Shown: positions 3,989 through 5,479, counted from the first letter of the stretch. The stretch: DNA of 11,141 bases from a virus (IMGVR_UViG_2529293240_000017); one strand, 5' to 3'. Numbers and translations are program-made. The notes: generated from the sequence alone by a model not told the origin.

Positions 3989-4232
3989 CTGAAAAATAAT
4001 TCTTTAAAATACCTGACATGTAATACAGAAAAAACACAAAACCATACCTTAAATAAAAACCTGATTATCAAGCAGATATGCATGGATAAACTACAAGACG
4101 AGATATAAACCACCCTGCATTTAAATAAACAATAAACAACATCAGAAAAATAATTCTGCTCTATGGTTTAATTCAAAAATATCATTTATACTTTTCAGAA
4201 CATCACCAGCAAGGCATAAACAAGGAAACTAA

Positions 4233-4568
4233 ATGAAGTGGATTGTGATTGATACAGTTATCCAGCCATCATGCGGAATATCTTTTTCAGTCATATGGAG
4301 TAAAATAAAATTAATAATCTGGTATCAATCGGATGCTTTCTTACCTCCTGAAAGTATATTTACACTGACTCACACAGGCATCATGCTCAATAACAAAGTG
4401 CTACCTGTAACCATTTACAACGTAGTACCATTCAATAAAACATTCTGGAATTTAATCAAAAACAGCCAGGAATGCCCTACAAATACAGATAACGTATTGA
4501 ATGAATGCTTTAATAACCGTTGCACTCTGCAAATATGTCCTTATGGACTAAAACAACAAAGTCCATAA
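4233..4568 (+). CDS. hypothetical protein, 111 aa, AT-rich, divergent from the late operon
   Basis: ORF with AGGAAA 6 nt upstream of the ATG. Six ATA codons. An 11-bp perfect hairpin (4538-4548 / 4561-4571) overlaps the stop codon. No recognisable family. Confidence 0.3.
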
Positions 4569-4588
4569 GGAGTTTACTCACATCTGAC

Positions 4589-4624
4589 AAAATCAATATA
4601 AACAGCCCCTCCGGAGAGGGGCTG
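4589..4624 (-). terminator. putative intrinsic terminator (9-bp GC stem followed by an interrupted U-tract on the minus strand)
   Basis: Stem 4603-4611 pairs with 4616-4624 (CAGCCCCTC / GAGGGGCTG), loop CGGA. Minus-strand downstream sequence is GUUUAUAUUGAUUUUG. Confidence 0.35.
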
Positions 4625-5015
4625 GAGAGTGGCGCTATGTGCCATTGCATGGTGCCGGGTGCCTCCCGGTGAATTCAGTACCAGCACCTGAATCCGCGAT
4701 TATCCCATATACCTACTCGCTGATTGCCCCTCCGCACAGGGGGATTCACCATGCCAGTTTCTTTTAACAAACTCCCCGCAAACCAGACAACAGTCAACCG
4801 CCTGAATTGTGAAGTATTTAAAAATTTCTCCCGCTAACTGATACCCGGCTAACAGTCTGGCGTTTTCTTTTTCAGCAACGGGAAAGCAACAACCACCACA
4901 CCCGCCACCAGCACACCGTCAGCCGGCACTGACATTATCCGGCTGCTGCAATGCCATTCACAAAAACAGTAAGCAATCACTTTTTACCGTAACAGGTGAT
5001 AATCCAGATATGTAT

Positions 5016-5369
5016 CTACCCCAGATGAGTAATCCGAAGTTCATCCATACCACAGGTCCTGGCTATTCTGTTGTACTCCTGAACAAGAGCAAATAATTCT
5101 GAATTAGCAACCATGAACTCATCGCAAACCCTCTGTATAGCATCACTATTCAGAATAATAACGTCTCTTCCCGAAAGACGATCAGGAGTACAGAACAAAA
5201 CTGTCAAACGGCTGAAGGCCTTTGCTCGTGCTGCATTGACTATATCAATACGCTGCCTAAGGATGAAACACCCCGACGCCTCATCAATATTCACTCTACC
5301 CACACCATATGAATGATAAATACTTAATGCTGAAAAAACCATTAGACCGTATAACAAATACTCAATCAA
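5016..5369 (-). CDS. hypothetical cargo (moron) protein, 117 aa from a TTG start (108 aa from the ATG at 5342), hydrophobic N-terminus
   Basis: Only sizeable ORF in the AT-rich slot on the late-operon strand. 6 of 11 Arg codons are AGA/AGG and 3 of 11 Ile codons are ATA. No family recognised. Confidence 0.4.
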   Translation of the reverse strand: MIEYLLYGLMVFSALSIYHSYGVGRVNIDEASGCFILRQRIDIVNAARAKAFSRLTVLFCTPDRLSGRDVIILNSDAIQRVCDEFMVANSELFALVQEYNRIARTCGMDELRITHLG

Positions 5370-5479
5370 TACTTAACAGAACTTTTATTTTTGACAAATA
5401 TATAATATTTTCAACAATATCCTGAGCCAGGTATATTTCAGTATAAGGCTCTGCCGGAAGGAATCTGGAAGAATGAATA

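Follow-up and report, generated by a model that had tools for sequence, protein, structure and literature searches.

What is carried by the A+T-rich interval that separates the tRNA genes from the lysis genes of a lambdoid prophage? The question is raised by positions 3989-5479 of the 11,141-nt stretch of viral DNA analysed here (the window), a slot with a G+C content of 0.393 (39.3%) compared with 0.496 (49.6%) for the window as a whole. The initial annotation had recognised a moron slot at this place, with a 117-aa open reading frame (ORF), a 111-aa ORF on the opposite strand and a G+C-rich island, and had taken it to hold uncharacterised cargo with no recognisable gene. All three features lie where they had been placed, and the moron reading is borne out by a Qin-like layout, an unusual base composition, the conservation of the genes and the modular way in which phages differ here. 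Its content, however, is recognisable: the 111-aa ORF encodes IraL, the island belongs to the Rfam family STnc100, and a 43-aa ORF that had not been listed belongs to the Pfam family DUF3927. In our reading the slot is very probably the iraL/STnc100 moron cassette of a Qin-like defective lambdoid prophage resembling phi-potB of CFT073, and is built of three modules. The cassette is real cargo, has already been described and is common in the prophages of E. coli and Shigella.

Along the minus strand, which is the late strand in the window, the genes follow one another in the order relB/relE, hok, a DUF968 gene, rusA, Q, a tR'-like terminator, the tRNAs, the slot, DUF1737 and the holin (Table 1). 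Placement between tRNA-Arg and DUF1737, atypical G+C (0.39 compared with 0.50) and partial sharing among phages and genomes together mark the slot as a moron. Within it the G+C content is 28-35% over 3989-4568 (0.283 in the region upstream of iraL and 0.345 in iraL itself), 0.519 over 4594-4980, 44% over 5016-5294 and 31% over 5295-5479. On the Q side of the tRNAs, a pR'-like promoter (TTGATT-16-TAAATT, 5871-5844, minus strand), which scores below the scan threshold, is followed by the tR' hairpin at 5796-5777. A match of Rfam Trp_leader to the tR' leader (26.7 bits for a gathering score of 41) was treated as chance, presumably due to the terminator hairpin, as was a match of Plastid-ycf2 antisense to a tRNA, also below the gathering score.

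Table 1 Features of the slot and of the genes that flank it, in window coordinates
Feature	Position	Strand	Description
P21-type holin	3298-3582	-	Pfam profile positions 1-54 of 64
DUF1737 gene	3785-3988	-	Bounds the slot downstream; the late/lysis genes continue from here; Pfam PF08410, 62 bits
Divergent intergenic region	3989-4186	.	From the DUF1737 start (3988, minus strand) to the iraL promoter; 28% G+C
iraL promoter and 5' UTR	4187-4232	+	-10 element TATACT at 4187-4192; transcription start 4200; 33-nt 5' UTR; AAGGA before the ATG
iraL	4233-4568	+	111 aa; RssB anti-adaptor that stabilises RpoS (assigned by sequence identity); tail-to-tail with STnc100 across a 25-bp gap; runs against the late operon
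STnc100	4594-4783	-	STnc100-family prophage sRNA related to PasD; Rfam RF02076
DUF3927	4849-4980	-	TciB-like small hydrophobic protein, 43 aa, GTG start; Pfam PF13064
Maximal ORF	5016-5369	-	117 aa, TTG start
orf92	5016-5294	-	About 92 aa; likely start GTG 5294, stop 5016; PHROG 2873
A+T-rich leader	5295-5479	-	From tRNA-Arg to orf92; 31% G+C; includes the first 25 codons of the 117-aa ORF
tRNA-Arg	5480-5556	-	Anticodon TCT; bounds the slot upstream, as read along the late strand; ARAGORN; Rfam tRNA, 68 bits
tRNA(cat)	5658-5733	-	ARAGORN
tR'-like terminator	5777-5796	-	Hairpin between Q and tRNA(cat)
Q	5910-6698	-	PF03589, with a DnaJ-type zinc domain

The prophage that carries the slot is degraded. 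Its holin, first described as S21-type, lacks the C-terminal end, and about 25 bp separate the end of its ORF from that of an IS3-family transposase gene (stop at 3273). Two partial copies of the IS3-family element (554-1033 and 2561-3273) lie on either side of an IS2 (1181-2409), and a second IS2 copy is found at 9868-11141. The lysis cassette appears to have been cut off at the IS element, and from this arrangement we infer that the lysis and morphogenesis genes are missing from this prophage. The holin/IS junction has an exact match in CP178302.1 (E. coli strain ECMA0423), to which the window is thereby assigned. A third tRNA, located between tRNA(cat) and tRNA-Arg(tct) (5574-5650, minus strand), has decayed and is called by neither ARAGORN nor Rfam; the window and E. 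coli 042 both keep its acceptor/D-arm and 3' end but have unrelated sequence in place of the anticodon arm. The corresponding tRNA-Arg of CFT073 is intact (22388-22464 in comparison locus L006). Farther from the slot, a hokD-like toxin ORF (8867-9022, minus strand) matches the NCBIfam Hok family at 48.5 bits, below the cutoff of 73, and no sok antitoxin RNA reached the Rfam gathering score in the window; in the CFT073 and L011 prophages sok lies beside hok.

The main gene of the slot is the 111-aa ORF on the plus strand. Its product is identical in all residues (111/111) to WP_000871291.1 of CFT073, whose gene is c1429, or iraL (PMC12890032, PMC4045071). It matches the NCBIfam model NF007393 (“anti-adapter protein IraM”) at 162 bits for a cutoff of 121, with residues 1-110 on profile positions 1-113 of 114, and its residues 1-78 match the IraM structure 8TWD with E = 9e-32. 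The identity of 62% to K-12 IraM over 107 aa agrees with the 58.9% published for IraL and IraM (PMC4045071), which supports the assignment to IraL. Between iraL and iraM, dN/dS is 0.16 and third-codon positions are the least conserved. Judged by its sequence, the 111-aa ORF is iraL, the published anti-adaptor. The Pfam search offered no model for IraL/IraM and no match for the 111-aa product, which may be the reason why a domain-based reading missed the gene.

The 5' end of iraL mRNA has been mapped by 5'-RACE as a 32-nt sequence (PMC4045071), the first 30 nt of which (ACATCACCAGCAAGGCATAAACAAGGAAAC) are found exactly at 4200, while the last two bases are CA in the published end and TA in the window. 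Upstream of 4200 there was no convincing candidate for a -35 element. The upstream regulatory region is at least 96% conserved among iraL-carrying strains (PMC4045071), UPEC and Shigella isolates are enriched for the gene (PMC4045071; Hryckowian et al. 2014), and in CFT073 both iraL mRNA and protein have been detected (PMC12890032, PMC7157518). Despite the degraded state of the prophage, iraL, its promoter and its flanks are intact, and we infer that this copy is expressed. RssB co-purifies with IraL, which interacts with the RssB N-terminal domain in a two-hybrid assay, and the log-phase half-life of sigma-S is about 5 min in the wild type compared with about 2.5 min in an iraL deletion (PMC4045071). 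By analogy with the identical CFT073 protein, RssB binding and a longer sigma-S half-life would be expected for the window product.

The G+C-rich island matches the Rfam model RF02076 over its entire length (132.4 bits, gathering score 47, E = 3e-30, model positions 1-206 of 206), and on the strength of this match is a full-length copy of the prophage sRNA STnc100. Its 3' end is an intrinsic terminator at 4624-4603, a 9-bp G+C-rich hairpin followed by the T-rich TTTATATT. A minimum-free-energy fold of the single sequence reproduces the consensus architecture with a z-score of only -1.86, and 11 of the 39 predicted pairs carry compensatory changes on both sides in a comparison of six copies, namely that of the window and five from another prophage. 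The promoter scan detected no acceptable -35/-10 pair in the upstream region, of which 70 nt are conserved between copies (TTAAAT...CACAATTCAG...TTGAC). STnc100 has been treated as a PasD-related prophage sRNA and taken to indicate phage origin (Zhu, Shabalina and Storz, bioRxiv 10.64898/2026.05.13.724894). In Stx2 phages it lies 75 nt downstream of stx2B, and in STEC it has been found in outer-membrane vesicles by RT-PCR (PMC12370729); no function or targets have been assigned to it (PMC9029176).

Two further observations concern this family. The Q-to-holin slot of a prophage in E. coli O178:H19 strain 2012C-4431 (L008) contains five full-length STnc100 copies (119-172 bits) at 4075-4287 and 6047-7026, four of them arranged head-to-tail with a period of about 260 bp, 3' of an AraC-type regulator and an orf92 homologue and 5' of a SASA esterase gene. 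RefSeq, moreover, places a partial ‘hypothetical protein’ pseudogene exactly antisense to STnc100 in several loci (4639-4767, plus strand, in the window; 4716-4841 in L001/L002; 23270-23395 in L006, from CFT073), most likely an annotation artefact that arose when translated sRNA sequence was clustered as protein.

The claim that neither ORF can be assigned to a family thus fails for the 111-aa product (NF007393, IraL) and stands for the 117-aa product, which has no match in Pfam or NCBIfam and falls only into the unnamed PHROG 2873. Such a want of matches in Pfam for both products and in NCBIfam for the longer one, together with an orf92 that has no named relative, is what could be expected if the slot held uncharacterised cargo without any assignable gene family. 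This reading is nevertheless very improbable and already refuted, given that the 111-aa product is the published IraL, whose gene was characterised in 2014 (PMC4045071), that the island is a curated Rfam family and the 43-aa ORF a DUF3927 member, and that two of the genes are already named by PGAP in hundreds of genomes. Explained as the iraL/STnc100 cassette, the slot leaves the list of candidate unknowns, with a published regulator of RpoS proteolysis and a widespread prophage sRNA as its cargo.

Of the two ORFs first described, the 117-aa one is likely to represent a real but shorter gene, orf92. Residues 10-117 match PHROG 2873 at 231 bits over profile positions 1-108 of 108, and homologues are found at 56-63% identity. 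More distant relatives from profile searches (21-40% identity) are mostly 91-95 aa long and start at codon 26 of the 117-aa ORF, where L009 has an AGGAG before the same GTG. Compared with L009, L007 and L011, relatives of 40-63% identity, the 92 codons of the window give dN/dS values of 0.21-0.27 with the third codon position least conserved, and the comparison of L009 with L007 gives 0.31, whereas the 25 codons upstream of GTG 5294 give 0.81 and look non-coding. The start position of the relatives, the AGGAG in L009 and the contrast in dN/dS all point to a gene of about 92 aa beginning at GTG 5294. In the leader, a weak promoter-like site (TTGAAA-16-AAAAAT, 5414-5387, minus strand) agrees with the consensus at 9 of 12 positions, and such sites are as numerous as expected from shuffles.

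An AlphaFold2 model of orf92 built with the family alignment (pLDDT 89, helices at 3-34 and 50-81) predicts a two-helix hairpin. NCBIfam and Pfam searches with the 117-aa product returned no match, the members of the family, all scanned against Pfam, yielded nothing beyond isolated single matches, a PDB profile search with the family gave only hits of E > 0.1, and Foldseek searches of the model against PDB and BFVD gave none at E <= 0.001. We dismissed EmrA, prefoldin, BAR domains and TraM, which Foldseek brought up, as generic helical hairpins, and a Pfam match to RHIM (E = 0.09) as noise. Of 5426 complete E. coli genomes, 1185 (22%) carry the gene, and annotation passes it over: in a 25-row sample spread over these genomes, all 24 full-length matches fell where RefSeq has no feature. 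A conserved gene of about 92 aa, under purifying selection, has thus been left out in every sampled case. The family always follows Q (L007/L008, L009, L010 and L011). Directly 5' of the orf92 homologue, at 21-130 bp, an AraC-family (HTH_18) regulator is found in L007 (164-889), L008 (4664-5389) and L009/L010 (3142-3870), and the window has no such regulator; this adjacency suggests that the two might be functionally connected, with orf92 acting for instance as an anti-activator.

The constraint on both ORFs decides against the alternative that the slot is decayed intergenic DNA and its ORFs chance reading frames in a degraded prophage. Values of dN/dS as low as 0.16 for iraL and 0.21-0.27 for orf92, with third-codon positions least conserved, are not what such DNA would give, and two ORFs of at least 111 aa arise in only 0.35% of 2000 dinucleotide-preserving shuffles of the slot. 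In addition, hundreds of genomes match the slot at 99% identity or more, and it occurs in inducible phages. What speaks for decay is the IS-ridden state of the prophage, the decayed middle tRNA, the missing RefSeq annotation of the 117-aa ORF and the dN/dS of 0.81 in its first 25 codons. For iraL, STnc100 and orf92 this alternative is already refuted, and for the slot as a whole we find it scarcely credible; both ORFs have homologues and evolve under purifying selection.

The case of DUF3927 is less clear. The 43-aa ORF scores 90.7 bits against PF13064 (gathering score 25), with residues 2-43 on profile positions 7-53 of 53, matches PHROG 1470 (“TciB-like”, E = 2.6e-11) and is annotated by PGAP as WP_000562553.1. 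Its N-terminal 13 residues are unrelated to those of the L009 counterpart, so that the first of the two hydrophobic helices seen in the 50-aa homologues is absent, and dN/dS relative to L009 is 0.62, a sign of relaxed constraint. Because of this lost helix and this dN/dS, the 43-aa copy may be a remnant. The idea can be extended to orf92, such that orf92 and the short DUF3927 would be the non-functional remains of a larger orf92-TerB(TciA)-DUF3927(TciB) module and only iraL and STnc100 would be functional cargo. L009 and L010 do carry, in this order, orf92, a TerB-like gene, a 50-aa DUF3927 gene and the holin, and the window has no TerB-like gene. The orf92 frame, however, is intact and constrained, orf92 occurs without TerB in L007/L008 and L011, and the short DUF3927, for all its truncation, retains its Pfam score and is kept in CFT073, 042 and MS6198. 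We regard the extended version as possible but on the unlikely side, and retain the three-module cassette in which orf92 and DUF3927 form one module.

The distribution of the slot agrees with such a modular make-up. At 80% cover or more, the whole slot occurs in 863 of 5426 complete E. coli genomes; in the hundreds of E. coli chromosomes that match it at 99% identity or more, PGAP names its contents “IraM”, “DUF3927” and a pseudo “hypothetical protein”. Taken singly (out of the same 5426), iraL is found in 1446 genomes, orf92 in 1185 and STnc100-like sequence in 2860, at up to 12 places per genome. Almost all genomes with a full-length iraL (1421 of 1441, ~99%) have the tail-to-tail junction of STnc100 with iraL. 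Related phages have only parts: mEp460_ev081 shares 5479-4646 (orf92, DUF3927 and most of STnc100), vB_EcoS phages share 4948/4812-3989 (STnc100 and iraL), and Stx phages share approximately 4828-4598 (STnc100). By this comparison the slot is modular, and the suggestion that it might be a variable cassette is upheld in the form of partial sharing among phages and genomes. To judge from the partial sharing and the genome counts, cargo modules in the Q-to-lysis interval are swapped in and out beside STnc100, which serves as their common anchor, and iraL is almost always joined to one copy. This anchor position is the place occupied by stx2 in Stx phages.

We propose the following mode of expression for the cassette. 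The first module, orf92 and DUF3927 on the late strand, would be expressed as part of the pR' transcript that Q antiterminates, with a possible contribution from a weak promoter of its own. The second, also on the late strand, is STnc100, a structured sRNA that ends in its own terminator and recurs in most lambdoid Q-to-lysis intervals; lying 3' of tR', it could be read by Q-modified RNA polymerase and possibly from its own promoter. The third module is iraL, known from published work as a moron that is expressed in the lysogen and raises sigma-S by blocking RssB; here it would be transcribed on the opposite strand from its own sigma-70 promoter, starting at 4200. [quoted passage not shown] Late transcription would have to cross iraL in antisense to reach DUF1737 and the lysis genes.

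A terminator scan of the plus strand within the slot found no intrinsic terminator 3' of iraL, and the iraL mRNA may therefore extend antisense over STnc100. This invites a more far-reaching proposal, in which iraL and STnc100 form a functional convergent pair, the iraL mRNA being antisense to STnc100 and the Q-dependent late transcript antisense to iraL, and in which, separately, orf92 is a real protein left unannotated by RefSeq in about one-fifth of complete E. coli genomes. We think this combined proposal improbable as it stands; if the convergent pair were real, the level of the sRNA, prophage induction and the stabilisation of sigma-S would be coupled.

The closest known relative of the cassette is found in the potB prophage of CFT073, which shares 98.25% nucleotide identity with window positions 5775-3316 over 2.46 kb. 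Q, the tRNAs, DUF3927, STnc100, iraL, DUF1737 and the holin are common to both. The window prophage is the more degraded of the two, with its holin cut beside an IS element and its middle tRNA-Arg decayed, whereas CFT073 carries an IS200C between Q and the tRNAs that the window lacks. At the level of the protein, K-12 IraM (b1160; 8TWD) and Salmonella RssC belong to the same family as IraL and share its target, RssB. Stress induces IraM, which makes contact with both domains of RssB, in contrast to IraL, which acts in log phase and contacts the N-terminal domain only (PMC4045071). Homology between K-12 iraM and the window iraL is confined to the coding region (70.6% nucleotide identity), with unrelated flanks. 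We considered whether the K-12 iraM neighbourhood might be a relic of the same cassette and rejected this, since only the coding sequence aligns and no STnc100 is present there.

With other STnc100/PasD sRNAs, the window copy shares a full-length model match, a terminal intrinsic terminator and a position 3' of Q in the lambdoid late region. It differs in being a single copy placed tail-to-tail with iraL, whereas other prophages have up to five copies in the slot. More broadly, the interval from Q and the tRNAs to the holin is where Stx phages carry stx and K-12 Qin carries cspB/cspF as morons, and lambda bor provides an example of a moron on the opposite strand. The window has the same architecture as the stx and csp slots, a likeness drawn from established knowledge, in that Q, tR' and rare-codon tRNAs are followed by cargo and lysis genes. 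By analogy with the stx, csp and bor morons, its cargo would combine atypical G+C content with its own promoter and a phenotype in the lysogen. It differs from the toxin and the cold-shock proteins of those slots in consisting of a regulator of host sigma-S turnover and an sRNA, and iraL, unlike the stx and csp cargo, is opposed to the late operon.
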